From Rhizobiaceae bacterium (lineage in GTDB: Bacteria > Pseudomonadota > Alphaproteobacteria > Rhizobiales > Rhizobiaceae): DNA of 64,000 bases. A model generated the notes under the pieces. That model made no database searches. It had not been told where the DNA came from and saw nothing but the letters and a program-made list of their open reading frames with translations. Each line of letters begins with the position of its first letter. The first letter of the stretch is position 1. The stretch is taken from contig CBDDLK010000001.1 in assembly GCA_965230715.1 (NCBI GenBank), forward strand, positions 2,738,656 through 2,802,655. The letters are read 5' to 3'. Below are positions 9,026 through 27,271 of this stretch, piece after piece. A program made the position numbers and the translations under genes.

Positions 9026-10273
9026 TCACCAGGTAACCGGCAGTGTGTCCACACGGAAAATGAAACGCTCTTCATCGAACGTGACGTCTTCAAAGGGAAC
9101 CGCTAGCTGCACGTTCGGAAGTCTGCTGAACAGGGCCTCCAGCGCACTTTGGATTTCAGCGCGGGCAATCGGTTGCCCCAGGCATTGGTGCATTCCAAAT
9201 CCGAACGCGACATGACCACGGGCATCGCGATCCAGATCCAGCTTGTCCGGATTGTCCCAGCGCTCCGGGTCCCGGTTGGCCGACGGGTTGAACCCGATGA
9301 TTCCGTCGCCTTTCCTGATGGTCACTCCGCCGATTTCAATATCGGCCAAGGCAACCCGGCGGCGACCGCCTTGGGTGGCATCAACATAACGCAACAGCTC
9401 TTCGGTAGCTGGCTCGATCCGGCTTGGATCATCCGTCAGCTTTTTCATTTCTTCGGGATTGGCCAGCAATGCCCAAAGAGATGCCGAGAGCGTATTTGCT
9501 GTCGTTTCGTGTCCTGCAATAAGCAGCAAACGCGACAGACTGACCATTTCATGATGCGTCATGTGACCCGGAATCATCTGTTGTTGGACCAGCCGCGAAA
9601 GCAAGTCATCCTGAGGATTATCGACCTTGCGCTGCACCAATTCCGGAAGGTAGCGACCGCAGAAATCTTCGGTGACCCGCTCAACTTCATCCATCGGGGA
9701 AAGGTTACTGGTCAAAACGTCCGCGCTTTCCTGGAAATAGTCGTGCTCTTCGTAAGGCACACCTAACAGACCACAAATAACCAGCGTTGGCAGTGGCCAG
9801 CACAAATCCGTAACAAGGTCCGCCTGCTCACCTGATTCTGCTTTCGCGATCATCTTGTCGACCAGGTCTTCGGCAATCGACTTGATCTTGGGCTTCAACT
9901 CATTGACGCGCTTGATGGTGAATTCAGCCGTCAACATGCGCCGCTGCTTGGTATGCTCCGGCGGATCCATGGAGATAATGTTGCGGTATTTACTGCGTCC
10001 GATTGCCTGGCCAGGCGTTTGACCCGGAAAGCCCGGCTTGGAACCGTCCGATGACAGGTTCGGGTTGTTCATCAACGCCTTTACGTCTTCATATCGTGTA
10101 ACAAGCCATGCCTCCTGACCGCTCCAGATACGAACCTTCTTGATCGGCTCTTCTTTTTGCCAATGACGCGAAGCAGGCGGTGGATCAAGCGGATACCCCC
10201 GCTTGGTTGGCCAGAATGGCACATCTTCATGGAAGGGGCAGCCTGCTTGTTCATTCGGTCGCTGGTCGCTCAT
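9026..10273 (-). CDS. cytochrome P450 (class I bacterial type)
   Basis: It has the heme Cys-ligand loop FGFGMHQCLGQ, the I-helix AGHETT and the K-helix EELLR. GGAG lies 7 nt upstream of the ATG at 10273. Confidence 0.92.
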   Translation of the reverse strand: MSDQRPNEQAGCPFHEDVPFWPTKRGYPLDPPPASRHWQKEEPIKKVRIWSGQEAWLVTRYEDVKALMNNPNLSSDGSKPGFPGQTPGQAIGRSKYRNIISMDPPEHTKQRRMLTAEFTIKRVNELKPKIKSIAEDLVDKMIAKAESGEQADLVTDLCWPLPTLVICGLLGVPYEEHDYFQESADVLTSNLSPMDEVERVTEDFCGRYLPELVQRKVDNPQDDLLSRLVQQQMIPGHMTHHEMVSLSRLLLIAGHETTANTLSASLWALLANPEEMKKLTDDPSRIEPATEELLRYVDATQGGRRRVALADIEIGGVTIRKGDGIIGFNPSANRDPERWDNPDKLDLDRDARGHVAFGFGMHQCLGQPIARAEIQSALEALFSRLPNVQLAVPFEDVTFDEERFIFRVDTLPVTW

Positions 10274-10308
10274 TTTGCGCTCCAAATTTAGCTAAGTTAC
10301 AAAACTTC

Positions 10309-10336
10309 TTGAAAACACTTTTATTATTCATATAAA
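10309..10336 (+). promoter_or_regulatory. sigma70-like promoter for the SDR-esterase unit
   Basis: TTGAAA, 16 nt, TATAAA, about 50 nt upstream of the ATG at 10385. Confidence 0.35.
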
Positions 10337-10384
10337 TGACAGTCAAGGAATATGTTTCACCTCAAGGTTTGATAGGCGATTGAA

Positions 10385-11239
10385 ATGAGAAACTTCGAAA
10401 ACAAGGTGGCTGTTGTCACTGGCGGCGCGGCAGGAATAGGTCTGGCGGTTGGCCGCGAACTAGCTAATGCAGGCTGCCTTGTCACTTTAATGGATTTTCG
10501 TCTTGAACCTTTGGAAGCAGCGCAAAAGGCATTAAACGACGAGGGAACAAAGGTAGATATTGCTCATCTCGATGTCGCAGACAAAAAGCATGTGGATCAG
10601 GCTGCCGAGAAAATCGGCGAAAAATTTGGTCGTATCGATATATTGGTAAACAATGCAGGTGTGTCGCTCAGGAGCAAGAAAATCGAGGAAGTTACCGAAG
10701 ACGACTGGAATTGGCTGTTAGGCGTTAACGTGTTGGGTATCATGAACTGCTCAAATGCATTTTTGCCGTATATGCGCGTGTCCGGTGAGGGTGGTCATAT
10801 TGTCAATGTTTCTTCTTTTAGCGGTTTTCGGGTCAATGCTGCGCGAAAGACAACCGCGTATGCCGCTTCCAAATATGCCGCCGTTGCCATATCTGAAGCC
10901 CAGGAGCAGGAACTTGCGGACGAGGGAATAGGCGTTTCGCTGGTGGCTCCTGCTGCTGTAAACACCGATATCTACCGCAGTTGGTTCTACAAGGATGAAG
11001 TTGATGGGCAGGACACGACAAACCTGATACCCGACGCACCAGACGACATCGCCAATGGTTACGATCCGTCACGGATTGGCCGTCAGATTGTGCACGCGAT
11101 AGAGAACAACCAGTTTTATGTTTTCACCCACCCGCACACCAGGGACTGGGCACAAGAACGGATGGACCGGATAATGCGCGCGTTCGACGATACGGATGCA
11201 TTTGACACGCTCGAACAGCAACGCATGGCAGAGGGTTGA
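10385..11239 (+). CDS. short-chain dehydrogenase/reductase (SDR)
   Basis: It has TGGAAGIG cofactor and YAASKYA catalytic motifs. Confidence 0.88.
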   Translation: MRNFENKVAVVTGGAAGIGLAVGRELANAGCLVTLMDFRLEPLEAAQKALNDEGTKVDIAHLDVADKKHVDQAAEKIGEKFGRIDILVNNAGVSLRSKKIEEVTEDDWNWLLGVNVLGIMNCSNAFLPYMRVSGEGGHIVNVSSFSGFRVNAARKTTAYAASKYAAVAISEAQEQELADEGIGVSLVAPAAVNTDIYRSWFYKDEVDGQDTTNLIPDAPDDIANGYDPSRIGRQIVHAIENNQFYVFTHPHTRDWAQERMDRIMRAFDDTDAFDTLEQQRMAEG

Positions 11240-11244
11240 GGGAC

Positions 11245-12156
11245 ATGAACGCAACCCCGAATACCGCGTTTGAAGTCAAGGTCACCCGAGACATCAACTA
11301 TGGACACTCCGGCATAAACTACGGTGACGCGTCGAAAGAACCCCAATCGCGCGCCATGCACATGGACGCCTATCACCCTGAGGACGGCGCTTCCTGCACT
11401 TTGAGGCCAGCCATCGTGTTGGCGTTTGGAGGGGCTTTTCATACCGGTTCGAAAGAGCGGGATTTCCACGAAGAATGGGTCGACGGGGTACATCACTGCA
11501 CAACCCCCATTGCCGAGTATTGCCATTGGCTGGCAAGTCTGGGGTATGTGTGTTTCTCGGTGGATTACCGAAAGATGTCGGAAGACCCCGACCCAGGCAC
11601 CACTCCGGTTCTTCAGGACCGGGGAGCAATGTCGCGTTCCGCGATTGATCGTGTTCGTTCCCGCGAAGGTCTGCCGGTCCTGACGGACGAGCAGGTGGCT
11701 GACGGCTTTGAGGCTGCTGCCGATGACCTCGATATGGCCATTAGATACGTCCATGACAATGCAACCCAATTCGGCATTGATCCGCAACGGATTGCCGCCG
11801 GCGGGTTTTCCGCTGGTGGAACATCCGCCCTTTATGCGGTATTCGGACATGGCGCACCCGCCAAGGCGGTACTAACCATTTCGGGACGGTTGGAAGAACC
11901 CGACATCGACCACTACGTCGGTAAAGACGTAAATATCGCCCCTTCGATATTGCAGGTGGTCGGCTCCGACGATTTTGACTATGTCGTCCATCTGAATGGC
12001 ATCATGGCTGAAAAATTCAAGCAAACCGGCATGGACGCCAGTGTTGCAGAAGTGATCGGCGGCAGGCACTTCTTTCAGAGAACGGCGCCGCTAGCCGGGC
12101 GAGATGGCAGAACTGTTTCCGACGCTGTTCAAGCATTCTTTGACAGCAAGCTTTAG
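11245..12156 (+). CDS. alpha/beta hydrolase (carboxylesterase/lipase-like)
   Basis: It has a GGFSAGG nucleophile elbow and an FGGAF oxyanion region. The ATG at 11245 is preferred over the TTG at 11236. Confidence 0.75.
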   Translation: MNATPNTAFEVKVTRDINYGHSGINYGDASKEPQSRAMHMDAYHPEDGASCTLRPAIVLAFGGAFHTGSKERDFHEEWVDGVHHCTTPIAEYCHWLASLGYVCFSVDYRKMSEDPDPGTTPVLQDRGAMSRSAIDRVRSREGLPVLTDEQVADGFEAAADDLDMAIRYVHDNATQFGIDPQRIAAGGFSAGGTSALYAVFGHGAPAKAVLTISGRLEEPDIDHYVGKDVNIAPSILQVVGSDDFDYVVHLNGIMAEKFKQTGMDASVAEVIGGRHFFQRTAPLAGRDGRTVSDAVQAFFDSKL

Positions 12157-12187
12157 AGAAAAAAGGGGCGCGAAACATTCGCGCCCC
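12157..12187 (-). terminator. intrinsic terminator after the ferredoxin-reductase gene (hairpin shared with the convergent esterase gene)
   Basis: A perfect 10-bp stem GGGGCGCGAA-aca-TTCGCGCCCC (12165-12187) is followed on the minus strand by TTTTTTCTCT. Confidence 0.75.
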
Positions 12188-12230
12188 AGTGGATGGCCCA
12201 AGCAGGGAGGATGCAAACCGGGCCGGGTAA

Positions 12231-13475
12231 TTACACAAGTCCCAGAACCTCAAGGATCGGCGCTTCGCGGTCTTTCAGTCTCTCCACATCAACCCTTTCG
12301 TTCAATGGCAAGGCTCGACGGCACGCCATAAATTCCTTGGCACCGTTAAATACATCGGAAGCCAAAATCCGCCCATCCTTCAGGTAATAGACACTGAACG
12401 GCACTTTTCCGAACTCACCGCGAACGACCATCTGGTCATAACCCTCCGACAAGCCTACCATCTGCAACTTGACCCCGAATTGATCGGTCCAGAACCATGG
12501 CAGCGCTTTATAGGTTTCGTCTTCACCCAGCATCGCCATCGCGGCGATGCGAGCCTGGTCGGTGGCATTTTGAACCGACTCAAGCCGAAGGTGACACTTA
12601 TAGATTGGGTTGAAATGGCGGGTACAATCTCCGGCGGCAAAAATGTTCGGATCGCTCGTGCGACATGCCTCGTCGACTACAATTCCATTGTCGCATTCAA
12701 GTCCCGCATTTGCCGCCAGTTCGTCGTTGACCTCGACACCAATTCCCACAACCACAATATCTGCGCCAAGCTCAACATCGTCACAGGTCACGCTAACCAC
12801 GGAGCTTTCTCCGTTCAGGGAAGTGACGGACACGCCGGTTCTGATATCGACTCCGTTCTCACGGTGCAATTGTGCGTAGTACTCTGACAATTCCGCAGGC
12901 ATGATTCTCGGCATCAGTCGCGAAGCACTTTCCAGCACCACCACTTCCTTGCCCAGTTTGCGTGCGGCAGCAGCCATTTCCAAACCGATAAACCCTCCGC
13001 CGATAACCACGACCCGCTCGCTCCCGGAGAGCCTTTCGCGGATTGCATCTGCGTCGGCAAGCCCACGCAGACAATACACACCATCCAGATGTGATCCAGG
13101 AACCGAAAGCTGCCGCGCCCGTGTACCGGTAGCCAAAAGCAATTTGTCGTAGGAAAGCGTTCTGCCATCCGAAAGCTTCAACTTGCGGCCTTGGCGGTCC
13201 AACGATGTCGCGTGCGTGTCTGACAGCAACTCAATGTTCTGCTCATCAAAGAAACCCTCCGGCCGCAATGCCAGTCGCTCCATGTTCATGTCGCCAACCA
13301 GATACTGCTTGGACAATGGCGGACGCTGGTATGGCAGGTGCCCCTCGCCGTTTACCAGGACAATGCGCCCCGAGAAGCCGCGTCTTCTAAGGGTATCGGC
13401 AGCTTGGACACCGCATTGTCCTGCACCGACGATAACAATGTTGTCGGTAGCAGGCTTGCTGTTAGTTTCTTTCAT
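12231..13475 (-). CDS. FAD-dependent NAD(P)H:ferredoxin reductase (putidaredoxin-reductase-like)
   Basis: It has two Rossmann motifs, VIVGAGQCG and VVIGGGFIGLE. Length is 414 aa. Confidence 0.9.
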   Translation of the reverse strand: MKETNSKPATDNIVIVGAGQCGVQAADTLRRRGFSGRIVLVNGEGHLPYQRPPLSKQYLVGDMNMERLALRPEGFFDEQNIELLSDTHATSLDRQGRKLKLSDGRTLSYDKLLLATGTRARQLSVPGSHLDGVYCLRGLADADAIRERLSGSERVVVIGGGFIGLEMAAAARKLGKEVVVLESASRLMPRIMPAELSEYYAQLHRENGVDIRTGVSVTSLNGESSVVSVTCDDVELGADIVVVGIGVEVNDELAANAGLECDNGIVVDEACRTSDPNIFAAGDCTRHFNPIYKCHLRLESVQNATDQARIAAMAMLGEDETYKALPWFWTDQFGVKLQMVGLSEGYDQMVVRGEFGKVPFSVYYLKDGRILASDVFNGAKEFMACRRALPLNERVDVERLKDREAPILEVLGLV

Positions 13476-13502
13476 GATCTTGTCCGGGATTTCAGGTTTT
13501 AA

Positions 13503-13697
13503 TCAATCCACGATCGAGATGACAACAGCCGGACACAGCTCGATTGCCAACTCGATGTCTTTTCGTGCGGACTCTGGCGGATTCTCATTCAGCACCACAA
13601 CCACGCCATCCTCATCCCTTTGATCAAAGATTTCCGGGGCGGCCAGAACACATTGCCCGGCACCACAACATTTGGATTCATCGATTTCAATCTTCAT
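13503..13697 (-). CDS. small single-cluster ferredoxin
   Basis: The 64-aa product is MKIEIDESKCCGAGQCVLAAP...CPAVVISIVD. AAGGAG lies 7 nt upstream of the ATG at 13697. Confidence 0.85.
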   Translation of the reverse strand: MKIEIDESKCCGAGQCVLAAPEIFDQRDEDGVVVVLNENPPESARKDIELAIELCPAVVISIVD

Positions 13698-14097
13698 TTT
13701 TATTCTCCTTGTGTGCATCCATCTCGGACAATCGAACAGTTCGATCGATTTTTATACACTCTTACAAAGCTAACTTGTTTACTATTGTTTCATCAAGGCT
13801 GATGCATCAAGGCGATCCAACCCTTTATCATTCATCCACCGTATTCCATCTTCAACATTTTCACGACCTCACAACCACACAGACAATGAAATCCGCTTCG
13901 CGCCATTATTACCGAAGCTACACAAATTTTCTATAATTATCTTTTTTATTTACTTTTGTTACAAAGATATTATTCTAATAGCAAGCCCATAGAAGGCCGA
14001 GGCAAAACAAGGTCCGCAAGAAAACAGCCAGAAGGTGCAATCCGGCTTTCGTGACGGGCACATGACATTACTCATTCCCCGTGAACGGAGAACAAAG

Positions 14098-15288
14098 ATG
14101 AATGCCCATGCTCCTGCGACCCAACCAACTGACCCGGAACTGCGCGATACGTTCATCAATGGCATGAGCCACGCCGCTTGCACCGTAAACATTATCACAA
14201 CAGACGGGCCTGCCGGGAAAGGCGGCGTAACGGTCTCGGCAATGTCTTCGGTTAGCGCTGACACTCCAAAGCCAACGCTGCTGGTTTGCGTTCATCATTT
14301 GTCTCCTGTCGCAGAACAGATCAAGGTCAACGGTTGTTTCGTGGTAAACGTTCTGCGCGACGATCAGGCCTATATTTCTGATACCTTCGCAGGCCGGTTC
14401 AAAGACCAGGTAACGGACAAGTTTGACTGCACCGAATGGACCAACATGTCGTCGGGCGCCCCCCGGGTTGTCGACCCTTTGGTTGGTTTCGACTGCAAAG
14501 TCGTTTCCGCAGAGCAGGTCGGAACCCATTACGTTTTTTTCGGTGAAGTTCAGGACATTTTCATCTCAGGTCGCGGGTCTCCATTGATTTATGCCAACCG
14601 GGCTTATGGTTCTGCGAACCGAATCGAGCCAGTCAACTCCATTGGTGACGGGCGGCAAGAAGCCGATCGCAAACTGTCCATCGGATGTTTCCACTCTTTT
14701 GGACCATTTGTCGTTCCAGAAATCATCCACGGCCTTACAAAAGCCGATGCAAACCTTTCAATATCTGTCGTGGAAGGCGATCAGCGCCGCCTGCAGGAAG
14801 CGTTATTGTCAGGCGAATGTGAAGTAGGCCTGATGTATGAAGACGAGATGCCCGAAGAAATTGGTTACGACATTATGGCCCGGCTTGAACTGTATGTTCT
14901 TCTTGCCGAAAACGACCCATTGACCAAAAATGAGAGCATCGGGCCGGAAGACCTGGCAGACCGTCCATTGATCTATCTTCAGGGACTGCCTACCGATGCT
15001 TTCCTCGCAGATGTTCAAGCCACTTGTGGCCGGGATCCCAAGATCGCATACAGACCAAGATCCCTGGAAATGGCGCGCTCGATGGTAGGACATGGTTTGG
15101 GATACACAGTGTTGGCTACGAAGCCGGCCTCTGCCATGACTTATGACGGCAAGGCACTGACCTCGCGTACCTATGCAGGTAACAACGGCTCGATGAACAT
15201 TGTCCTTGCCGTTTTGAAAGACGCAGACCTGTCCCCCGCTGCGCAACAATTCCACAAGTTCTGCAGGACGTTCTTTGATTTGGACTGA
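14098..15288 (+). CDS. fusion protein: NADH:flavin reductase-like domain + LysR-type effector-binding domain, no HTH
   Basis: The N-terminal half has LRDTFINGMSHAACTVNIITT and GVTVSAMSSVS...LLVCV (HpaC-like). The C-terminal half has LSIGCFHSFGPFVVPEIIHGL and GHGLGYTVLA (LTTR co-inducer domain). GGAG lies before the ATG at 14098. Confidence 0.8.
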   Translation: MNAHAPATQPTDPELRDTFINGMSHAACTVNIITTDGPAGKGGVTVSAMSSVSADTPKPTLLVCVHHLSPVAEQIKVNGCFVVNVLRDDQAYISDTFAGRFKDQVTDKFDCTEWTNMSSGAPRVVDPLVGFDCKVVSAEQVGTHYVFFGEVQDIFISGRGSPLIYANRAYGSANRIEPVNSIGDGRQEADRKLSIGCFHSFGPFVVPEIIHGLTKADANLSISVVEGDQRRLQEALLSGECEVGLMYEDEMPEEIGYDIMARLELYVLLAENDPLTKNESIGPEDLADRPLIYLQGLPTDAFLADVQATCGRDPKIAYRPRSLEMARSMVGHGLGYTVLATKPASAMTYDGKALTSRTYAGNNGSMNIVLAVLKDADLSPAAQQFHKFCRTFFDLD

Positions 15289-15327: not shown

Positions 15328-16971
15328 TCAGATCAAGAAAACGGATCGTTCCGGCATGGTGGTGTTTGCAATGATTTTGTCATGCAGCATGGTTGCGGAA
15401 GGGACAGCTTCGTTAAGCGTGAAATCAGCACAAGCTTCAATAATGTCAGGTCGACTATGGGCATTTTTGCCTTGGGCCATCCTTTGCCAGGTCGCCGCGA
15501 ACCAAACCCATCCACTAAGCATGACGTAGTTATGCGCGGCAAACCCGACATCATCCATCTGGCGCACCCGGGCTGTCGCATCGCGCCACAAACCCAACAG
15601 GTGTTCAACTAGCCTGTCGTCCCCGGCATGTTGCAGGACATGGGTTTCGAAGGCAGATGCATAATCTGTTGCAGAAATCTTCAACAGCCGTCCGGCGACC
15701 CCCATCGACAGCACACCGTTCGTACCTTCAAAAATCGACAAAATCCTCGCGTCACGCGTGATCTGCTCGGTCTGTGTTTCCCGGCAATACCCGTAACCTC
15801 CGTGCGTTTGCACACCCAGATATGAAGCCTCTTGCGCCGCTTCCGTACAATAAACCTTAAGCATGGGGGTCAGGAATTCCAGTGCCGGATTGGCCGGATC
15901 CAATTGCAGCGTGACAGCTGCATCATATACCATAGCCCGACATCCAAGCGCCAGCGAGTACATTCGCAACAACATGCGCTGAACGTCCCGGTGCCCGGCA
16001 ATCGTGTCGTTCGCCCCCAGTTCCGATTGCGGCCTTCCCTGCTTTCGGTCCTGAACATAAGCCCATGCGCGCTGGCGTGCGGTCTCTGCCAGCCCAACCC
16101 CACCAAGTGCAACATCCATCCGTTCGGAATTCATCATGGTGAACATGTTCTTGAGACCTTCGCCGACATTTCCAACCAATGATGCAGTGGCACCTTCCAA
16201 TGCGACCTGGCAGGTCGGAGAACCATGCAGGCCCATTTTCTCTTCAATGGCTGTGACCGCAACCTTGTTGCGGCTTCCGTCGGGATTGACTGACGTACAA
16301 ACAAAAAGGGACAGGCCTCCCATGCCCGATGGGGCCCCCTCGGTCCGAGCCAGTACGAGATGAACAATATTCTCCGTAAGGTCGTGATCTGCGGCTGTGA
16401 TGAAACACTTGTTACCAGTCAGCGACCAGGTGCCATCTTCATTGGAGACGGCCTTTGTTGAAACCCGCGCCAAATCTGATCCGGCACCGGGTTCGGTCAA
16501 GCACATGGTCGACAACCATTCGCCGGACACCAACTTGGGCAAACAGGCCTGCTTTTGTTCATCGGTACCATGCGAGTGCAAGGTTTTAATACATCCTTGT
16601 GGAAGCGTTAGAATGGTGGCAATGCCAAGACAAGCACTGGACAACATTTCTGCCTGCACACGTCCCAACACGAAAGGCAAATCTTGCCCTCCAAATTCAA
16701 CTGGCGCTGTGATTGAAGGCCACCCTGCTTCAACATATCCATCGTAGAATGCACGAAACCCTTCAGGCAGTTTCACGCGACCGCCAACCATTTGTGCACC
16801 CGGATCATCGGCCAACGTGTCCAATGGCGCGAGAACGTTGCCAATATAGCGGCCCATCATTTCGACCACTTCGGCAGACAGTTCGCTATCCCAATCGGGC
16901 AAGCGATCGACGCCCGCCCCGAATTTTAAGGCAAACAGTATATCCTCGACGGGGGCAGAATAGTTGACCAT
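15328..16971 (-). CDS. acyl-CoA dehydrogenase, long (547 aa) form with N-terminal extension domain
   Basis: It has the CLTEPGAGSDL and GGYGY ACAD motifs. Confidence 0.88.
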   Translation of the reverse strand: MVNYSAPVEDILFALKFGAGVDRLPDWDSELSAEVVEMMGRYIGNVLAPLDTLADDPGAQMVGGRVKLPEGFRAFYDGYVEAGWPSITAPVEFGGQDLPFVLGRVQAEMLSSACLGIATILTLPQGCIKTLHSHGTDEQKQACLPKLVSGEWLSTMCLTEPGAGSDLARVSTKAVSNEDGTWSLTGNKCFITAADHDLTENIVHLVLARTEGAPSGMGGLSLFVCTSVNPDGSRNKVAVTAIEEKMGLHGSPTCQVALEGATASLVGNVGEGLKNMFTMMNSERMDVALGGVGLAETARQRAWAYVQDRKQGRPQSELGANDTIAGHRDVQRMLLRMYSLALGCRAMVYDAAVTLQLDPANPALEFLTPMLKVYCTEAAQEASYLGVQTHGGYGYCRETQTEQITRDARILSIFEGTNGVLSMGVAGRLLKISATDYASAFETHVLQHAGDDRLVEHLLGLWRDATARVRQMDDVGFAAHNYVMLSGWVWFAATWQRMAQGKNAHSRPDIIEACADFTLNEAVPSATMLHDKIIANTTMPERSVFLI

Positions 16972-16986
16972 GGGGATACCGTGAAG

Positions 16987-17661
16987 CTATTCGGTTGGAA
17001 TCGGAGCTTCGCCAAAGAATGACTTGGGATAGTAATTCCGAAAATCCTCGTCGATGCGACTGAACGGCAGTTCGCTCCAGTAGCCATGGTCCTTGAGGTA
17101 TTCCATCCGGGTATTATTATCTGAGTCATACTCCTGGAGAATGGCATGGTTCCGACCGTCGAATTCTGTCGGTGCGACACCGGTTTTGTCACACAGCTCC
17201 TTGTTAAAAGCCGGCACAGCCTTGACCCACTTGCCTTCCAGATACATTACCGCGTAACCATGATGCAGAAACACCGTTTTGCCTGCCATGGCCCGTTCGA
17301 CCTTGGGTGAGGTAAAGTGGTTGATCACATCGCTAAGGCCGATCACGGCTGGAATTCCAGCCGCTCGTGCAGTCGCAACCAAAAGGGATGCTTTGGGAAT
17401 GCAGAACGCAGACCCCTTTGCGATGACGTCGCTCGCGACATAGATGTCCGGGGTCATTCGAATGCCGAAAATGTCATAACGGAACTCATCGCGAATTGCA
17501 TAGAACAACCGGATGGCCTTCTTGATTTCATTGGTTTCGTCATCGATCACGCGTTCGACAAATGCCTGTACAGACGGTGTTTCGAAATCAAAAAACCGCG
17601 TGGGAGCCAGGTTTTCAACACTGGGTTCAGGATCACCGTAAGGCGTGAATATCATTGTCAT
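16987..17661 (-). CDS. transglutaminase-like (Cys-His-Asp fold) protein
   Basis: GSAFCIPKASLL and HHGYAVMYLEGKW match the transglutaminase-core Cys and His regions. The start at MTMIF abuts the upstream stop. Confidence 0.65.
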   Translation of the reverse strand: MTMIFTPYGDPEPSVENLAPTRFFDFETPSVQAFVERVIDDETNEIKKAIRLFYAIRDEFRYDIFGIRMTPDIYVASDVIAKGSAFCIPKASLLVATARAAGIPAVIGLSDVINHFTSPKVERAMAGKTVFLHHGYAVMYLEGKWVKAVPAFNKELCDKTGVAPTEFDGRNHAILQEYDSDNNTRMEYLKDHGYWSELPFSRIDEDFRNYYPKSFFGEAPIPTE

Positions 17662-18887
17662 GTCCTCTCGTTTGACGGGCGTTGCGAGACTTCGATTACC
17701 ATCGCGAATCCGGAGTCCCCGGCGGCACATCCATTGTAAAGACCAAGACCGCCACCGCGCGCGACCAGTTCTTCAATCAGTTCGATAATGACACGCGTTC
17801 CGGTGGGGCCTTGTGGATGGCCAAAAACCAGCGAGCAACCATAGTTGTTCATTTTCATCACGTCGAACCCAGTCTCACGGGCAAAAACGATGTCATTGAC
17901 GACAAATGGATTGTGAGACTTTACTGCATCAATGTCTGTAATCTGCAACCCTGCCCGCTGTAGGGCAGTCTTGGTTGCCGGTACAGGCGCAAACGGCATG
18001 AACCCTCGCTCTGCCCTGCCCTGTGCATATGAAAGAATACGTATACGAATGTTCGAATCGGCCGAAATTTCGCGAGCCTTGTCAGAACTTGCAACTATCA
18101 TTGATGCGTTGCCATCGGCAGGGTGTGTCTGGCCGGCAAAAGTAACCGTACCTCCCGGTGTTGCTGGCTTGAGCCGGTCGAGATCGTCGCGCGAAGGGTT
18201 GTGCACACCCACATCGCCGTCGATTGTTTCGATAACCTTGGCCAGCTTGGCGTCTGGCGCTCCAAATGGCAGGGTCATGTAACGCCGCTGAAACGCCCGA
18301 TCGTTTGCAAGTGCCTCGCCATATTGCTGGTATCGGCGCATAACAACATCATGCTGTTCCGACGTTTCAATTCCCCATTTTTCTGCACAGTTTTCAGCTG
18401 TTTGCACCACCGGTTCGCGCAAATGCGGCGCATCTGAGAAATTATCAATGTAAAAAGCTTCTGTTTGTGGAATACCACCCGGCCCACCGTCTCCGGCGTA
18501 GGTAATGAATGCGCCGTTGGAGGCCCGGTCGCATGTGACTACCAACGATGTCAGCGCGACACCCTCATTCACCTCGGTTGCTGAAAACGCAATCGCCCGC
18601 GGTCCGGTCTGGCACGCCTGCACCACCGTTGGGCCAGGAACATTATCAACCCCGATCATCGACATGACCCAAGGCGCACCCCAGAACGAGCGCCATTGAG
18701 GCACCGTCACACCAAGGGTTGAATGATCGAACAGGTCCGGCGCGATGCCGCGCGTATCAAGCTCGTTCTTTGCAACATGGGCAGCAAATTTCATTGAATG
18801 CAAATGTGCAAATGCACCCTGCCATTTCACGAACGGCGTAGACCAGTAACCACGAAACGGTATTTCCACGTTTTCAAGCATGGTCAT
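17658..18887 (-). CDS. thiolase-family protein
   Basis: It has VVQACQTG (nucleophile Cys), VFGHPQGPTG (His) and NGCAAGD (C-terminal Cys). Its ATG overlaps the stop of the upstream ligase gene (ATGA). Confidence 0.8.
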   Translation of the reverse strand: MTMLENVEIPFRGYWSTPFVKWQGAFAHLHSMKFAAHVAKNELDTRGIAPDLFDHSTLGVTVPQWRSFWGAPWVMSMIGVDNVPGPTVVQACQTGPRAIAFSATEVNEGVALTSLVVTCDRASNGAFITYAGDGGPGGIPQTEAFYIDNFSDAPHLREPVVQTAENCAEKWGIETSEQHDVVMRRYQQYGEALANDRAFQRRYMTLPFGAPDAKLAKVIETIDGDVGVHNPSRDDLDRLKPATPGGTVTFAGQTHPADGNASMIVASSDKAREISADSNIRIRILSYAQGRAERGFMPFAPVPATKTALQRAGLQITDIDAVKSHNPFVVNDIVFARETGFDVMKMNNYGCSLVFGHPQGPTGTRVIIELIEELVARGGGLGLYNGCAAGDSGFAMVIEVSQRPSNERT

Positions 18888-20716
18888 TGGACTTTCAAAT
18901 CAATAACAGGAGCATTGCCGGTTCCACCATAAAGTTGGTCGACGATGGCGGCTCGGTTATCCAGAACCGCTCTTTGATTAATGTACCCTTTGTCAGTAAT
19001 TTCGCTTCTGTCGACAGAAGGTGGTGTTTCGAGCAACACCGCACGGGCAATCCGGCGCGAACCGCCGCCAGCCGATTTGTTGTGCCTCAACAATCCGTCC
19101 CGAATCGCATTGACAACCAGAGGATCGGTCAGCACCAAACTTGTATCTGTTTCAGACGACCGGGCCTGACAGGCCTCAAGTTTTGGAAATATCAGCGCGG
19201 AAATGTCGTTTTGATTATGCCCGGCAATGACAACATCAGATATCAATTCCGGGCAAGTTGAAATCAGGTCGACCCGCAATTCACCAACATTCACCCATGT
19301 GCCTGACAACAGCTTGAAATTCTCTCCGATCCGCCCGTCGAACAGGATGCCCCTGTTGACATCATCGGCGTCAACCAGTTTGCCGGCATCGCCAATTTTC
19401 AGGAACCCCTCTTCGTCAAACATGTCGCCGGTCAACTCTGGCTGTCCCCAATAACCGGGGGTCACAGAAGGCGCTTTGGCGCGAAGTTCCAATTTGCCGC
19501 CAGTGTCCTTGATAAACTTGATTTCGGCACCTGGCGGCGGCAAACCGATATTGCCTGCATGATGGTTCTCAAAGTAGACTGCGGTGACAACCGGACCGGT
19601 TTCCGTGCTGCCCCAAAGCCCAACGATAGGCACCTCTCGTCCCTTGACCCGAAGTGCGATCTCCTTCAGCGCGGTCCAAATTGGCTCGGGCAGGGCCGCG
19701 CCTGCATACCCAATCAGCTCGACATTCTCGAACAACGCCTGCTGCAATTGCGGGTCATCCTTCATCTCACCGAGAAGTGCATCGAACCCGCGTGGTACGT
19801 TGAAATAGACCGATGGCCGAGTTGCCTTGATTGCCTCAACCGTCCCCTGGATCGCCCCAGGCATCGGCCTGCCCTTGTCGATTGTCAGTGTTCCACCTTG
19901 GTAGATCGCCATATTGAAGTTCTGGTTGCCACCAAATGTGTGGTTCCAAGGCAACCAATCCACCATCTGCAATGGCTTGTCTTTTAGAACGGGCCAAATC
20001 TGACGGAGGGCCTGCTGATTTGAGCACATCATCCGGTGGGTGTTTATTACCCCCTTTGGGTTTCCGGTAGACCCTGAGGTGAACAGGATTTTGGCAACGC
20101 CATCCGGGTCAATTTCCGGCAACATCCGTTCAGACTTGCTACCTGTTGCCAGCAGTTCATCCCAACCCAATACCCCGCTTTCCCCTGCGGTCATGGAAAC
20201 CAACTGAATGCCTTCCCAATTAAGGTTTTCGACCGCCCTTGAGTGCTCACGAACGTCATCGAAAACGACAATCGAAGGGTTGAGCAATCCAAGAACATAT
20301 TTCAGTTTTGCGTGATCTGAAGATTTCAGCGAATAGGCTGATGAAACAGGTGCAACCGGGACCCCGGCGGCGTAGCATCCAAGGACAAGCTGTGCCATTT
20401 TCGCTGAATTGTCAGACAACAACGCTACCGGGCGCTCTGCAGTCGCCCCCATTTCAAGCATGGAACGGGCAATAAGGCGGGCAGTGCCTGCAACCTCGCC
20501 ATAGGTAGCAATGCTTTGACTGCCATCTGTCTCCAGTTCAACATAAAGCGGTTTGTCCGGGTTTGCCTGCGCATGGTGCCACAACGCTTCTGTTATGGAG
20601 CCACGATAGGTCTGCAACGGGACATTGCAAACAATTTTGAAATCCTCTTCGCCCAAGTCCACGCGCGAGCAGGAGACATCACCGAAAGGCGTACAACATT
20701 CGCTGTTGGTTTCCAT
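18884..20716 (-). CDS. AMP-dependent CoA ligase, feruloyl-CoA-synthase-like (610 aa)
   Basis: It has the FTSGSTGNPKGV motif. The N-terminal region VAPVSSAYSLKSSDHAKLKYVLGLLNPSIVVF resembles Fcs-type ligases as I remember them. Confidence 0.8.
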   Translation of the reverse strand: METNSECCTPFGDVSCSRVDLGEEDFKIVCNVPLQTYRGSITEALWHHAQANPDKPLYVELETDGSQSIATYGEVAGTARLIARSMLEMGATAERPVALLSDNSAKMAQLVLGCYAAGVPVAPVSSAYSLKSSDHAKLKYVLGLLNPSIVVFDDVREHSRAVENLNWEGIQLVSMTAGESGVLGWDELLATGSKSERMLPEIDPDGVAKILFTSGSTGNPKGVINTHRMMCSNQQALRQIWPVLKDKPLQMVDWLPWNHTFGGNQNFNMAIYQGGTLTIDKGRPMPGAIQGTVEAIKATRPSVYFNVPRGFDALLGEMKDDPQLQQALFENVELIGYAGAALPEPIWTALKEIALRVKGREVPIVGLWGSTETGPVVTAVYFENHHAGNIGLPPPGAEIKFIKDTGGKLELRAKAPSVTPGYWGQPELTGDMFDEEGFLKIGDAGKLVDADDVNRGILFDGRIGENFKLLSGTWVNVGELRVDLISTCPELISDVVIAGHNQNDISALIFPKLEACQARSSETDTSLVLTDPLVVNAIRDGLLRHNKSAGGGSRRIARAVLLETPPSVDRSEITDKGYINQRAVLDNRAAIVDQLYGGTGNAPVIDLKVQ

Positions 20717-20758
20717 TGCTAGATCCGGTTCAGTTTTTTTGGTGCTTCATTTTTGCGG

Positions 20759-21550
20759 TTAATCCTTCTTAACACGCGGTGCCCGTCCGCTCAGAAACTC
20801 TTCCAACAGGTTTTGCGCATCCTCGCTGGTATGGGCGAGGCCTGCCATCAGGGACTCGGTGAGAAACCCGCCTTCGGACGGCATGTCATACATTCGGGGC
20901 AAAGCATGAATAATTGCAAAGTTCGACAACCCTGCATTCCCGGCAACCTTTTCAGCGAGTTCCAGCGCCTTTGCTTCCGAACCGCCCGCTTCCACCAGGT
21001 GATGTGACAGCCCGAGGTCAAAACCGCGTTTGGCATCAAAGACATTTCCCGTCAGCATCATCTCGGCCATTCGCCCTGCCCCTATAATATTGGCAACCCG
21101 AACGGAGGCACCACCACCTACGTAAATCCCCCGAACCGCCTCGGGCAGAGCGAAAAAGCAACTGTCATCGGACACCCGTACATGCGTCGACGTTGCAATT
21201 TCCAACCCGCCCCCGATTACTGCGCCCTTCATGGCACTGATGACCGGGACACGCGAAAACTGTATTTTTTCCAGTACACGGTGCCAAAGCCGTGAATGGT
21301 ACATCGTTTCAGAAGCCGTCCTTTTGCGATGTTCAGTCAGGTCGAGACCCGCGCAAAAATGTTCCCCATCAGCGGTCAGAACAACTGAACCGACATCTTC
21401 TGGCAGTTCATCAAAGAACCGCTCAAAATGCAAAATTGTGGCATCGTTCACGGCATTGCGTTTCGCCGGTCTGCTGAAGCGCAGTATGGCAATGTTGTCC
21501 TGTCGTTCTTCGACGAGCCCGGATTCACCCGGCATGGGGGTATAAGACAT
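20759..21550 (-). CDS. enoyl-CoA hydratase/isomerase (crotonase) family
   Basis: It has FCAGLDL and GAVIGGGLEIA oxyanion-hole segments. Confidence 0.88.
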   Translation of the reverse strand: MSYTPMPGESGLVEERQDNIAILRFSRPAKRNAVNDATILHFERFFDELPEDVGSVVLTADGEHFCAGLDLTEHRKRTASETMYHSRLWHRVLEKIQFSRVPVISAMKGAVIGGGLEIATSTHVRVSDDSCFFALPEAVRGIYVGGGASVRVANIIGAGRMAEMMLTGNVFDAKRGFDLGLSHHLVEAGGSEAKALELAEKVAGNAGLSNFAIIHALPRMYDMPSEGGFLTESLMAGLAHTSEDAQNLLEEFLSGRAPRVKKD

Positions 21551-21625
21551 CTAAGGTTCCGTATAAGTTTGTTTCGCTGCCCGGAACCCTACATCAAAAT
21601 CCCGGGCGACGCGCAAGGCGAATGT

Positions 21626-22687
21626 TCAGTTTCCTGCCTTCGCCTTTTCCAACTTTTTCTCGTTGAACGACGGTGTGCGGCCCTTCTGTGCAACAATACC
21701 TGCGCCACCCTCGTAGATTTCAAGGGTTTTCGATTTTGGTCGAAATGCATCATTGTTCAGCCACAACCGAAGCAGGTGGCGACGTTCGTCAGGGTCATCA
21801 TGGTCAACAAATGCTGTGCGGGAATGCACATGGTTGAGGTTGTTTACCCACTGGATTTGGCCGGGCTGGGTCATGAACTCAAACATGTATGTCGGGTCAT
21901 TTTGGTAGTCCCACAACAGTTCCACACATTCTTCCTCGAACCCCTCCAACGGCTCGCCCAGTTCTCGTTGACCCATCTCAATGAATGTCTTGATCCAACG
22001 TGAGCTGATTTTGCCGTCAGTGTCCGAGAAAACTGGAATTTTGTATGGGGTAACAGGATCATCGCCAGGCCCTTCTTCGCCACGGCGGTGGTAGTGGAAA
22101 CCCTGGTAAAGTCGCTCCAATACATCCGGACGGTTCTTCAGCAAGGCGTTGTGAACCGACGCCATGCTGGTCAGTTGGCTCAAACCACCTTCCTTGGCAC
22201 CCTTGATGCAGCACAATGACAGGATATCGCAATAGTCAGTATGCGGATTGAGCTTGTCCGAATTTCGATAGGCACGGGCGTGTGGATCGTTTTCAACTTT
22301 TGTAGCATCACGGACATGTCCAAGACGTTCGCCCATGACAGATTGAACAAGGCCGTTTCCCAGCGTTGTTCCCATCCCCCAATAGGCGCGCTCAACGTCC
22401 TCCTGCGACCAGCGGTCTACCGGTAATCCGGACATGATCAGGAACCCACGGCCATGTTGAAGTTCGTCCCAAACCTTTTTCATGGTTTGCTTGAGCTTTG
22501 GACAATCGAAATCCTCGGCTTCGACCTCATCCAGTCCTTTGCCCTCGGCATCCATTTTCCTGTTGAAGGCTTCAAGTTCGGCGATCTCGTCCGCCGAAAG
22601 CTCGATTGTGTAGTCAGCGGGAACCAGTTTGGCAGGTAACCAGGCCTCGGCTCCCTCGATCGGTTTGATATCTGTGGCAAGAGTCAT
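21626..22687 (-). CDS. TauD/TfdA-family Fe(II)/2-oxoglutarate dioxygenase
   Basis: It has an HxD iron motif (LNPHTDYCD) and a distal His (NHVHSRTAF). Length is 353 aa. Its ATG overlaps the upstream stop (ATGA). Confidence 0.75.
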   Translation of the reverse strand: MTLATDIKPIEGAEAWLPAKLVPADYTIELSADEIAELEAFNRKMDAEGKGLDEVEAEDFDCPKLKQTMKKVWDELQHGRGFLIMSGLPVDRWSQEDVERAYWGMGTTLGNGLVQSVMGERLGHVRDATKVENDPHARAYRNSDKLNPHTDYCDILSLCCIKGAKEGGLSQLTSMASVHNALLKNRPDVLERLYQGFHYHRRGEEGPGDDPVTPYKIPVFSDTDGKISSRWIKTFIEMGQRELGEPLEGFEEECVELLWDYQNDPTYMFEFMTQPGQIQWVNNLNHVHSRTAFVDHDDPDERRHLLRLWLNNDAFRPKSKTLEIYEGGAGIVAQKGRTPSFNEKKLEKAKAGN

Positions 22688-23355
22688 GTCGTTTCTTCTC
22701 CAAATGCACGGTTAATAACGGGGACTTGCTCCGGCACAATCGTGGTTTTACCGGTGAACCCCAACTCCTGCACGCGCTGGCAAAGCACATGCAGTCCCTC
22801 CAGGTCTTCGAGAGGACGATACGGCTCATCGAACAACATGATCCCCCGAATGGATGCTGCGCTGGCTGTTCGGGCACGGGCATAACGAAGCCCTTCCCAA
22901 CTGCGACCACAGCGCGCGTAAATCGAATAATCTTTGCCGCCAAAGAAAATGCCAACAAGGTTGGCTCGTGTCTCGACAATATCGAAAACGTTCTCCACGG
23001 CTTGTGGTCGCTCAACAATAGCGATCACGGGCATGTCCGGCATGATGTCAGCAAACATGTCCAGCTCGACACGGGTGTCAAAGCGGGGAATGCAAATACT
23101 GTCTGGCTTCATATCGCTTTCAGCGATCATGATCATGTCTTTCAGGCCATCCAGCGTGTTCAATCCGTTAATGCGAACACAATGATTGAAGTCACCATGG
23201 CGCTTGGAAATGAATTCGCGAACCAGTTCGCGCCCTGCTTCCTTGTCGTCAACGGTATCCTCAAGGTCGACCATGACCATGTCGGCCCCACAGGAAATGG
23301 CGGCCGCGAATTTTTCGCGGCTCGCCCCCATAACAATGATCGAACTTCGGATCAT
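22684..23355 (-). CDS. HpcH/HpaI aldolase / citrate-lyase beta (CitE)-like protein, short form
   Basis: RSSIIVMGAS...ADMVMVDLEDTV, AIVERPQAV and FGGKDY follow the order of CitE/acyl-CoA-lyase motifs. At about 223 aa it lacks the usual C-terminal part. The ATG at 23355 overlaps the dctP-type stop. Confidence 0.7.
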   Translation of the reverse strand: MIRSSIIVMGASREKFAAAISCGADMVMVDLEDTVDDKEAGRELVREFISKRHGDFNHCVRINGLNTLDGLKDMIMIAESDMKPDSICIPRFDTRVELDMFADIMPDMPVIAIVERPQAVENVFDIVETRANLVGIFFGGKDYSIYARCGRSWEGLRYARARTASAASIRGIMLFDEPYRPLEDLEGLHVLCQRVQELGFTGKTTIVPEQVPVINRAFGEETT

Positions 23356-24467
23356 CAAAGCTTCTCCGGATCCACTTTAGAGTAGATTTCATCCTGAAGT
23401 GCCTTGATGAAAGCGGCGCGTTCACCACCGGTTTCCTCGGTGATTTTGCTCCACTTCTTTTCAAGTTCGAAATAGGTTTCGATCAGGGCTTCAGGGTTTT
23501 CAACACCGCGCTTCTTGGCCCGCTCGATGATCTGCGGCAAAGCTTTGGCACGATAGCTTTCCAAGGCAGTGTCAAAATCGGCACCACCTGCTTCGAACGT
23601 GACACCGGCTTCCTTGGCCAGACCAATCGCAACCTGATCCTGGGCGTCATAACCGTCAACAATACCCCGATAGCTTGACCTTGCGAGCGAATTTACAATT
23701 CCCTGACGGTTTTCAGCGGAAACACTGTCCCAGCTGTCACGATTCATGAAAAGGTAAGACATGACCCGCGTAATTCCCATTGGGGTATCAACCACATGCT
23801 TGACTGTGTCGAACAGGCTGAAGCTCTTGAGCCAGGCAACCGGTCCAAACGTACAATCAATCTGGCCCCGCTGCAGACCCTCAACCAACTCACCCGATGT
23901 CATCTTGACAGGTGTCATTTGCAAATGCTTGGCCCAGCCACCAGTAGCGCCCGACGAACGGACCTTGACCCCTTTGAGGTCAGCGACAGTCTTGTAGGGC
24001 TCGGTGCACATCATGCGAAACGCAGAAGTAACGGTGCTTCCAAGATAAACCAGATTGTGCTTGCGGAAATCTTCAAGACAGCCCGGACAGTTCAAAAGCA
24101 CGGTTTCCTCGGTAGCGCCCAAAATGGCCAGCGGATTGTCTCCGAAGTACTGCAACTCGTTGATGGTTGCGACGACCGGGATAGAGTTGGTCACAAAGCT
24201 GGGTACCGTAGCCGATGCATCAGCCATGCCGCGACCTGTCGATGCCAGAGCCTCGCGGGCCGGAAACAGGGCGCCACCGGAAACCAGTTTCCACGCAACC
24301 TCTCCGTTGGTGTTCTTTTCGATGTCTTCAAAAAGCGTCGGAAGGATAATGGTGTTGATCAGGTGTTTGGGCCCGACCCAGCTACCATAAGTGAATTCAT
24401 CGGCATTCGCGGCAACTGGCGATATCATCGCCGCGACCGCCAGACCAGTCAGGAATTGTTTGAACAT
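23355..24467 (-). CDS. TRAP transporter substrate-binding protein (DctP family)
   Basis: It has the signal peptide MFKQFLTGLAVAAMISPVAANA, is 370 aa, and lies next to the DctM and DctQ genes. Confidence 0.88.
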   Translation of the reverse strand: MFKQFLTGLAVAAMISPVAANADEFTYGSWVGPKHLINTIILPTLFEDIEKNTNGEVAWKLVSGGALFPAREALASTGRGMADASATVPSFVTNSIPVVATINELQYFGDNPLAILGATEETVLLNCPGCLEDFRKHNLVYLGSTVTSAFRMMCTEPYKTVADLKGVKVRSSGATGGWAKHLQMTPVKMTSGELVEGLQRGQIDCTFGPVAWLKSFSLFDTVKHVVDTPMGITRVMSYLFMNRDSWDSVSAENRQGIVNSLARSSYRGIVDGYDAQDQVAIGLAKEAGVTFEAGGADFDTALESYRAKALPQIIERAKKRGVENPEALIETYFELEKKWSKITEETGGERAAFIKALQDEIYSKVDPEKL

Positions 24468-24500
24468 TTGTAACCTCCTATTGGATGGATTTGTGCCGCC

Positions 24501-25805: not shown

Positions 25806-26311
25806 CAGCCCGCCTCCCCGTAATTTTGCCCCAGAAGGGACTTCAGGTCTTTGCGCATTTTTGCCAATGTAACAAAGATAAACAGGAAAGACGCAAACGG
25901 CAGGCACCAACGGCTTGGCCAGACTTCAATGAACGTTACCGCCGCTTCCCAACTCTCCCGATACCCGGTGTTCTCAATCGCGCTCATGGTCGAGGCCCAG
26001 CAGAAAACAACCAGAAATATCAACGTCAGCAACCCGGCAAACAGATCAAAGCCTGCCATATTCTTGCGCTCGAGGTTTTGGGTAAATACCTCTACGATCA
26101 AGTGCCCTTCCTTGCGTGTCACATAAGCCAAGGGAAGAAACACAACGCCAACCATGTAGTATGCAGAGACTATCTCGGTGGTGCCATCAATTGGGGCATT
26201 GAATACATTTCTCGCCACGACATCGACGACAATGTGGATCATCATCAGGGAGAGCATGATCAACCCGATTTTATCACCAATGCGCTCCAGCGTTTTCAGG
26301 AAAAAATCCAT
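25805..26311 (-). CDS. TRAP transporter small permease (DctQ family)
   Basis: It is a 168-aa, 4-TM protein and the first gene of the Q-M-P order. Confidence 0.88.
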   Translation of the reverse strand: MDFFLKTLERIGDKIGLIMLSLMMIHIVVDVVARNVFNAPIDGTTEIVSAYYMVGVVFLPLAYVTRKEGHLIVEVFTQNLERKNMAGFDLFAGLLTLIFLVVFCWASTMSAIENTGYRESWEAAVTFIEVWPSRWCLPFASFLFIFVTLAKMRKDLKSLLGQNYGEAG

Positions 26312-26728: not shown

Positions 26729-27271
26729 GTGAACAGCGGCGAAGAACTTAGACACAACACCGTTAACCGACGAGAATTGTTAAACGATGGAACTGACGAA
26801 GCGTTTCGACAGTTCGTACACGATGCGCTGGCGTTTTCTGTCAGACTGCTTGCAATTCGCGATGGATACGGCAAATTGATGGGGATCACCGGACCCCAAT
26901 ATACAATTCTTATCAGTATCGCCCATCTGGGTCGTCACGGACCTGTCAGCGTTTCGAAGATCTCCAATCATCTGCATCTTAGCGGGTCGTTTGTGACGAG
27001 CGAGACAAAGAAAATGGAGAATGAAAACCTGATACGCAAAGTCAGCAATTCCGGCGACAAACGACGGGTTGATCTTGAGATCACCGACGACGGGTGGCGA
27101 AGGCTTGCGGATCTGTCTTCGATTCAGGCGGAAGTAAACGACGTTCACTTCGGGCCGCTTACGCGCAAAACCTTCCGCCAGTTGCGGGAAATCCTGCCGG
27201 AACTGGTAGACAGCACTGACGAAGCTCTTTCGCTTCTCAATCACCTGAAAAATACAAACCGCCGCGCCTGA
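26729..27271 (+). CDS. MarR-family transcriptional regulator
   Basis: The winged-HTH region is GPQYTILISIAHLGRHGPVSVSKISNHLHLSGSFVTSETKKMENENLIRK. It has a GTG start. Confidence 0.85.
   Translation: MNSGEELRHNTVNRRELLNDGTDEAFRQFVHDALAFSVRLLAIRDGYGKLMGITGPQYTILISIAHLGRHGPVSVSKISNHLHLSGSFVTSETKKMENENLIRKVSNSGDKRRVDLEITDDGWRRLADLSSIQAEVNDVHFGPLTRKTFRQLREILPELVDSTDEALSLLNHLKNTNRRA

Follow-up and report, generated by a model that had tools for sequence, protein, structure and literature searches.

The gene described here lies on the forward strand at positions 14098 to 15288 of the window, a term that we use for the whole 64-kb stretch of DNA that was analysed. The ORF list, the sequence and the Pfam matches define a gene of 396 codons and a stop codon (ATG at 14098, stop at 15286-15288) that encodes, in this order, a Flavin_Reduct domain, a linker and a LysR-type effector-binding domain; we refer to it as the fusion gene. 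A protein identical to its 396-residue product is present in the NCBI and ENA assemblies. The start codon is preceded at a distance of 7 nt by a Shine-Dalgarno-like GGAG read from the sequence (14087-14090, forward strand), and the N-termini of aligned homologues are consistent with translation from this ATG. The nearest upstream in-frame stop codon (13990-13992) is located 35 codons 5' of the ATG; a preliminary description of this DNA had counted 21 codons before the stop, a figure that is instead the distance to GTG 14035, the farthest possible start of the ORF. Because only 35 (or 21) codons are available, the winged helix-turn-helix (HTH) of about 60 amino acids and the linker helix of a LysR-type transcriptional regulator (LTTR) cannot be accommodated upstream.

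The intergenic region in front of the fusion gene (13719-14097; 379 bp, 41% GC) separates it from a divergently oriented ferredoxin gene and presumably serves as its promoter region. It contains no HTH-coding remnant, and an HMM of the LTTR N-terminus run against the six reading frames of the whole 64-kb window likewise yielded no match. A promoter and terminator scan gave signals at background level only. A single 7-bp palindrome is found at position 13731 upstream of the fusion gene, and it is absent from the upstream regions of the hpaB and marR genes of the window that are described below.

Pfam recognises exactly two domains in the fusion protein. The first is a Flavin_Reduct domain of the HpaC/RutF/CobR-type NAD(P)H:flavin reductases (PF01613; residues 23-172, positions 14164-14613, forward strand), matched over profile positions 1-151 of 153 (E-value 5.1e-28; score 98.5 bits, family threshold 27). 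The second is a LysR-type effector-binding domain (EBD) with the periplasmic-binding-protein fold (PF03466; residues 187-392, positions 14656-15273, forward strand), matched over profile positions 2-207 of 209 (E-value 2e-30; score 106.2 bits, family threshold 28). Between them lies a flexible interdomain linker (residues 167-178, positions 14596-14631, forward strand) that is variable in alignments and has pLDDT values below 50 in both AlphaFold models that we computed. The HTH_1 family (PF00126) has no match in the protein, so that the profile search agrees with the preliminary description, in which flavin-reductase and LysR-type effector domains had been read from the letters together with the absence of an HTH.

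Searches with the NCBIfam models ranked RutF and HpaC best for the N-terminal half and various LTTRs for the C-terminal half, all of them below the equivalog cut-offs (130.4 versus 254.75 bits for the RutF model TIGR03615; 108 versus 205.95 bits for the HpaC model TIGR02296), while NF045919 matches the protein at residues 23-173 only. We take S/T-x-x-P-P and G-D-H-type motifs to be the signatures of class I HpaC-like flavin reductases. The histidine of the latter (H144, within a G-T-H motif) is invariant in the 139 family members that we aligned, and the SxxPP motif is interrupted in the fusion protein by two one-residue insertions (S53-A-D-T-P-K-P59) when it is aligned to CobR. The fusion protein is a member of the PF01613 family that carries a PF03466 domain; it is neither an LTTR nor an equivalog of HpaC or RutF.

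Two AlphaFold runs, based on 117 and 139 sequences, predicted both domains with pLDDT values above 90 and a disordered linker between them (pTM 0.61 and 0.63). Neither run gave confident packing of the two domains against each other in the monomer and, since no confident interdomain contact is predicted, nothing in these models favours autoinhibition. We found no solved structure that covers both halves of the protein. The best solved relative of the N-terminal domain is CobR, a flavin reductase that has been studied by experiment (PDB 3cb0; 31-40% identical, E-value 9e-27), followed by TftC, PheA2, HpaC and C1, the reductase domain of the last being detectable as a homologue with an E-value of 1.9e-5 and through the model NF045919. 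The single-domain class I reductases HpaC, RutF, TftC, PheA2 and CobR (PDB 3cb0/4ira) resemble the N-terminal domain in fold and profile over its entire length of about 150 amino acids; they share with it the conserved histidine of the GDH-type motif and the HpaB-family gene that is adjacent in many genomes. Unlike these proteins of 150-190 amino acids, to which nothing is appended, the fusion protein continues into a C-terminal domain.

This C-terminal domain aligns to residues 85-296 of the LTTR 3fzv. Its match begins at about LTTR residue 85-90; hence, the fusion protein lacks the winged HTH as well as almost the entire linker helix and cannot be regarded as a DNA-binding LTTR. Foldseek identified HinK (6m5f), 3fzv and 2ql3 as the best matches; normalised to the target, the TM-scores are 0.62-0.68 when the chain is full-length (HinK/3fzv) and 0.88 for 2ql3, which consists of the EBD only. 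These closest solved LTTRs, HinK/PA0218 (6m5f, 3fzv) from P. aeruginosa and 2ql3 from Rhodococcus, are 27-30% identical to the C-terminal domain and superimpose with RMSD values of 2.0-2.5 Å over domain alignments of about 200 columns. The complete two-lobe fold is retained, and Foldseek also matches it to the ligand-bound LTTR domains of BenM, QuiR, RipR and ItcR. In HinK, imidazole-4-acetate is bound between the two lobes (PMC8231116).

The same architecture is widespread. The best 120 matches in a search of 5.8 billion proteins all carry both Pfam domains, most of them in proteins of 386-400 amino acids that are 54-72% identical to the fusion protein, and when each GTDB species was represented by a single genome, a relative was encoded in at least 274 of the genomes scanned. 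The carriers belong mostly to the Paracoccaceae and other Rhodobacterales; further members occur in Rhodospirillales, Puniceispirillum, Labrys and the gammaproteobacterial Arenicellales. Falsiruegeria mediterranea, Tabrizicola soli, Labrys spp. and Neptunicoccus are among the carriers that can be cultivated. When representatives at 50% identity were searched exhaustively with HMMER, 120 clusters reached an E-value of 1e-30 or better, about 30 of which are full-length two-domain proteins with an identity of only 34-50%. Since an architecture of about 390 amino acids recurs in at least 274 species-representative genomes, it is real and conserved and not an artefact.

None of the 139 aligned family members contains an HTH; orthologues in which an alternative upstream start adds an HTH had been named in the preliminary description as a finding that would count against its reading. 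Two long database homologues (P0044 and P0062) bear non-conserved N-terminal extensions that look like miscalled starts. In one locus (L057) the fusion gene is split by a frameshift. Stand-alone proteins of 160-230 amino acids with up to about 58% identity to the N-terminal domain exist as well, some of which may be contig fragments. NCBI names the members of the family either "LysR substrate-binding domain-containing protein" or "flavin reductase". Searches of the literature for this architecture found no paper and no characterised member, in agreement with the preliminary description.

In the window, the fusion gene is monocistronic, lying divergent to a set of genes for a 4Fe-4S ferredoxin, a ferredoxin reductase and a P450 and convergent with an acyl-CoA dehydrogenase gene; several ACAD-fold genes of the window are taken as true acyl-CoA dehydrogenases from their beta-oxidation context only. 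The only HpaB-family oxygenase gene of the window (29127-30704, reverse strand; HpaB_N and HpaB domains) is located 13.8 kb from the fusion gene on the opposite strand. A second Flavin_Reduct-type gene is not present in the 64 kb, nor did the window ORFs that were scanned include a reductase of another flavin-reductase class; the earlier observation that the sole HpaB gene has no reductase beside it is borne out. A gene for a MarR-family regulator (26729-27271, forward strand; Pfam MarR) is found nearer to the fusion gene, and a CoA-dependent beta-oxidation-like operon and a TRAP transporter are situated between the fusion gene and this HpaB/MarR pair.

The closest relatives of the fusion gene (65-72% identical at the protein level; loci L001, L002, L081, L083 and L084) present a more compact arrangement. 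In all five loci examined the gene order is hpaB-marR-fusion, with hpaB genes of 494-498 codons and marR genes of 180-187 codons, and in two of them (L081 and L084) the marR stop codon overlaps the start of the fusion gene by 4 bp. Genes for a UbiD/UbiX-like decarboxylase, a cupin and an amidase lie upstream of this operon. The HpaB protein of the window is 54% identical over 495 amino acids to the HpaB protein that heads the operon of L081, and its scores do not reach the cut-offs that NCBIfam sets for true 4-HPA hydroxylases; the MarR protein of the window is 46% identical to that of L081 (E-value 2e-47). Judged by these similarities, the hpaB and marR genes of the window are the orthologues of the clade's operon genes, moved 11-15 kb away from the fusion gene.

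We then considered the gene neighbourhoods of the fusion gene more broadly by calling ORFs in 80 fetched loci, clustering them and annotating the cluster representatives with Pfam; the ORF calls are crude, and some contigs are truncated. An HpaB-family gene was present 0-5.5 kb upstream of the fusion gene in 32 of 79 loci, in 28 of them on the same strand, and by these crude ORF calls the two genes are often immediately adjacent or overlapping. Elsewhere in these loci of about 20 kb, which served as an internal control, not a single HpaB gene was detected among the 79. Thirty of the 32 neighbouring HpaB proteins form one tight orthogroup, and just five loci contain another stand-alone Flavin_Reduct gene at a distance of up to 10 kb. 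The association of the fusion gene with HpaB-family genes goes far beyond what chance would produce. The co-occurrence of the architecture with HpaB genes that the preliminary description had suggested as a check is found upstream of the fusion gene in 32 of 79 loci, and it is not universal, 15 loci having only a Rieske oxygenase gene upstream and about 30 loci, notably those from Arenicellales, having no recognisable oxygenase partner at all. Among the 47 loci devoid of HpaB, 114 neighbouring ORFs and 20 hand-picked ones contained no recurrent family that could represent a luciferase-like or ACAD-like partner.

Other genes recur around the fusion gene. A GbcA-like, alpha-only Rieske oxygenase is encoded directly upstream on the same strand in about 22 loci, including the 15 without HpaB; genes for RidA and a DUF1028 protein follow directly downstream in about 26-34 loci; and an M20 deacylase, a TMADH/OYE-like flavoprotein and an amino-acid-type ABC transporter are further recurrent companions. 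We considered whether the cluster of HpaB, Rieske, fusion, RidA and DUF1028 genes represents one of the homarine and trigonelline operons, for which HomA supplies flavin, and rejected this because HomA comprises about 700 nt and HomB about 1,700 nt, and because LysR, RidA and DUF1028 do not feature in the homarine paper; the systems differ. Five more divergent members of the family were found in mixed contexts. One of them (42% identity) has an adjacent HpaB gene in a divergently adjacent HpaB and OYE context, a second has genes for an Acyl-CoA_dh_2 protein and a luciferase-like protein within 7 kb, a third (L090) is located near genes for a P450, a 4Fe-4S ferredoxin and a Rieske protein, and the remaining two have no obvious partner nearby.

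In 24 loci, a gene for a full-length LTTR is positioned on the same strand within 2.4 kb of the fusion gene, and the number rises to 27 when a distance of 10 kb is considered. No other LTTR effector domain in these loci comes near that of this neighbouring LTTR as a paralogue of the fusion protein's C-terminal domain (HMM E-values of 1e-37 to 1e-47, compared with about 1e-8 for the other LTTRs encoded there). The signature motifs at the pocket positions differ between the neighbouring LTTR and the fusion protein, and the idea of a binding pocket common to both was set aside. A full-length LTTR paralogous to the C-terminal domain is encoded neither in the window nor in the clade to which the window belongs.

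Taken together, we consider it about an even bet (a probability of roughly 0.5) that the fusion protein provides the reductase of a two-component monooxygenase, in most cases one of the HpaB type, and has a built-in, metabolite-responsive regulatory domain derived from a LysR-type protein. According to this reading, the cytoplasmic two-domain protein would generate free reduced flavin with its N-terminal half for a flavin-dependent oxygenase. In the window, this partner would probably be the HpaB-family monooxygenase encoded at 29127-30704, which in the closest relatives is co-transcribed with the reductase as hpaB-marR-fusion. The C-terminal half, a LysR effector domain that has lost its DNA-binding part, most probably acts as a small-molecule-responsive and possibly oligomerising regulatory module. 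Flavin reduction would be raised, or released, only when a pathway metabolite is bound to this domain, and futile oxidation of NAD(P)H and formation of H2O2 would thereby be reduced. We infer the identity of the partner and the reductase activity, the latter from homology, from the conserved motifs and from operons in which the oxygenase would otherwise have no reductase; above all the gating, which we regard as plausible, is proposed on the basis of the intact ligand-binding fold, the faster and pocket-centred divergence of the C-terminal domain, and the analogy with C1.

C1 is the reductase of the p-hydroxyphenylacetate 3-hydroxylase (HPAH) of Acinetobacter baumannii (PDB 5zc2). It is a flavin reductase stimulated by the effector HPA and possesses a MarR-like C-terminal domain derived from a transcription factor (PMC11618861). 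The reductase of the P. putida HPAH and NmoB, which belongs to nitrilotriacetate monooxygenase, share with C1 the combination of a Flavin_Reduct domain and a MarR/NadR-like C-terminal domain. As in C1, an N-terminal Flavin_Reduct domain is connected in the fusion protein by a flexible loop to a sensor-derived C-terminal domain that no longer binds DNA, and like C1 it would serve as the reductase for a two-component flavin monooxygenase. The Pfam assignments set the fusion protein apart from the C1/NmoB-type architecture, as its C-terminal domain is LysR_substrate and not MarR. Whereas the C-terminal domain of C1 is MarR/NadR-like, all-helical and about 125 amino acids long, that of the fusion protein is a LysR-type two-lobe alpha/beta domain of about 205 amino acids; because the folds differ, the sensor must have been recruited independently in the two cases. 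The partner of C1 is the ACAD-fold protein C2, whereas that of the fusion protein would have the HpaB fold, and gating has been demonstrated for C1, whereas for the fusion protein it is proposed. The mechanism would consequently be of a known kind, and what may be new is a different, independently recruited sensor domain.

Several observations count against our preferred reading. In the window, the fusion gene forms a transcription unit of its own, far from hpaB and beside a self-sufficient P450 set; about 47 of the 79 loci have no HpaB gene nearby; the scores for the NCBIfam RutF and HpaC models fall below the cut-offs; and a search for an operator common to the fusion, hpaB and marR genes found none, the sequences shared by their upstream regions being 9-10-mers at the level expected by chance.

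The pattern of conservation within the family bears directly on the role of the C-terminal domain. All 19 columns that are invariant in the alignment of 139 sequences fall within residues 23-170, that is in the reductase half, and none is found in the sensor half. In the close set, the mean pairwise identity is 75% for the N-terminal domains and 58% for the C-terminal domains; in the distant set, the two values drop to 53% and 29%, an asymmetry of the kind that would be expected for a constant catalyst combined with a diversifying sensor. Four motifs in the C-terminal domain (GCFH199, E226-GDQRR, T341-KPAS and Y349-DG), whose location in the pocket was deduced by offset from the alignment to 3fzv, are fixed in the close subfamily and variable in distant members. 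For the invariance of these motifs within the close subfamily, despite differing neighbouring genes, a ligand shared by all members or a structural function is no worse an explanation than an effector specific to each pathway. One can also envisage a constitutive flavin reductase whose LysR-type domain has no effector and provides a scaffold for a dimer or tetramer, or a docking surface, for instance for the oxygenase. The absence of predicted contacts between the domains is in line with such a role, and LTTR effector domains are natural dimerisation modules, just as HpaC-class reductases are obligate dimers. We nevertheless judge this explanation unlikely. The C-terminal domain retains its full two-lobe ligand-binding fold, C1 provides a precedent for the allosteric use of an appended regulator domain, and a domain that served purely as a scaffold would hardly be expected to diversify at its pocket positions, as seen in the distant members, next to a catalytic half that does not change.

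The full-length paralogous LTTR encoded close to the fusion gene in many loci raises the question of whether the fusion protein is primarily a regulator. It would then be an HTH-less LysR paralogue that forms mixed oligomers with the neighbouring LTTR, or acts on the MarR protein, and its flavin domain would report the redox or flavin status of the cell so as to modulate transcription of the catabolic operon. We consider this improbable, since the window and its entire clade lack such an LTTR, since it is the catalytic half and not the LysR half of the protein that is most conserved, and since the fusion protein is devoid of the LTTR linker helix, which mediates part of the oligomerisation of LTTRs. 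Moreover, the fusion gene is the only Flavin_Reduct gene found with HpaB in these loci, and if it did not encode a true reductase, the oxygenase would be left without one.

A role of the fusion protein as electron donor to iron-sulfur-dependent oxygenases (an alpha-only Rieske enzyme, or a P450 via a ferredoxin) in place of a flavin-dependent monooxygenase would suit the GbcA-like genes directly upstream, beside which our non-exhaustive annotation recognised no FNR- or GR-type reductase, and the proximity of a P450 and a 4Fe-4S ferredoxin in L090 and in the window, but it is very doubtful given that the window encodes a ferredoxin reductase of its own (12231-13475), that HpaB is also present in many of the Rieske loci, and that we are not aware of any HpaC-class reductase that donates electrons to a Rieske or P450 system.

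Returning to the reading of the fusion protein as a metabolite-responsive reductase component, we can outline a more specific version of it, which we offer tentatively. The C-terminal domain might bind the substrate of the oxygenase or an intermediate of the pathway and thereby switch on flavin reduction. This would constitute a second, independent capture of a sensor domain, convergent with the MarR-type domain of C1; together with the paralogous LTTR that is paired with it in many loci, it could allow transcription and enzyme activity to be controlled in parallel, and the reductase might possibly feed Rieske oxygenases as well.

Reduced flavin in free form is a waste of reducing power and a source of H2O2. 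The way in which two-component monooxygenases avoid uncoupled oxidation of NAD(P)H has been worked out in detail for little more than a single enzyme, the C1 reductase of HPAH. If our proposal is correct, the fusion family would be a second, widespread solution that relies on another sensor fold, itself very well understood. The post-translational gating of flavin supply would then be a general strategy that has evolved convergently, and the fusion protein would represent a naturally occurring LysR effector domain that functions independently of DNA and could be of use for studying the allostery of LTTRs and for developing ligand-switchable redox enzymes and biosensors. It would also aid the assignment of functions in the catabolic gene clusters (HpaB, Rieske, RidA, DUF1028, M20) of abundant marine Rhodobacterales, SAR116 and Arenicellales.

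In the window, the fusion gene is separated from the genes for its presumed partners, the flavin-dependent oxygenase HpaB and a MarR regulator, by a long operon on the minus strand (15328-25910), whose products comprise a 547-aa acyl-CoA dehydrogenase, a transglutaminase-like protein, a thiolase, an AMP-ligase, an enoyl-CoA hydratase, a TauD-family dioxygenase, an HpcH/HpaI aldolase and the TRAP components DctP and DctM. Beyond this operon, the minus-strand segment 27292-30704 encodes HpaB, followed by an AA_synth protein (PF06684) and an amidohydrolase, whereas in related genomes UbiD/UbiX, cupin and amidase genes lie upstream of the orthologous HpaB. Both the window HpaB and that ortholog miss the NCBIfam cut-off for a true 4-HPA 3-hydroxylase. 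Just upstream of hpaB, and divergent from it, lies a 470-aa open reading frame (31221-32633, plus strand) that matches no Pfam family at E <= 0.001.

On its other side, the fusion gene is divergent from a complete class I P450 system (9026-13718). Its components, all encoded on the minus strand, are the P450 itself (9026-10285), a GR-type ferredoxin reductase (12231-13475) and a 4Fe-4S single-cluster ferredoxin (13503-13718); SDR and alpha/beta hydrolase genes are placed among them on the plus strand. The fusion likewise adjoins a P450, a ferredoxin of the same type and a Rieske gene at L090, the locus of a distant family member.

Among the loci of other genomes that carry a relative of the fusion, a conserved but uncharacterised catabolic cluster recurs (L034, L039, L058, L061, L065, L067, L074, L079 and others). 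Relative to the fusion gene, it extends from roughly -6 kb to +2.5 kb, and it combines an amino-acid-type ABC transporter, HpaB, RidA, DUF1028, an M20 deacylase, an LTTR and the fusion. This cluster is distinct both from the homarine (hom) operon described in the literature and from the trigonelline TgnA/TgnB system with which the homarine paper compares that operon.

A dedicated full-length LTTR adjoins the fusion on the same strand at 24 loci (e.g., L074:8919-9851, L065:8934-9866, L044:12315-13253 and L051:13418-14350). The effector domain of this regulator is the nearest paralog of the C-terminal domain of the fusion (E 1e-37 to 1e-47), and the two differ in their pocket-position motifs.

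Two copies of the fusion gene, approximately 1 Mb apart, are present in one Arenicellales genome (L010 and L020, both on contig OY282380.1); no obvious oxygenase gene neighbors either copy. At L057 (9911-11155), a frameshift breaks the fusion gene into two open reading frames (9911-10309 and 10313-11155), so that this copy is a pseudogene unless the frameshift stems from an error in the assembly.

Immediately 5' of the fusion gene, a GbcA-like, alpha-subunit-only Rieske oxygenase gene, ending near locus position ~10000, is present at L003, L016, L025, L037, L043, L047, L049, L051, L062, L070, L072, L075, L077 and L078. Since these loci contain neither HpaB nor any recognisable FNR- or GR-type reductase, a Rieske enzyme may be served here by a reductase of the HpaC type.
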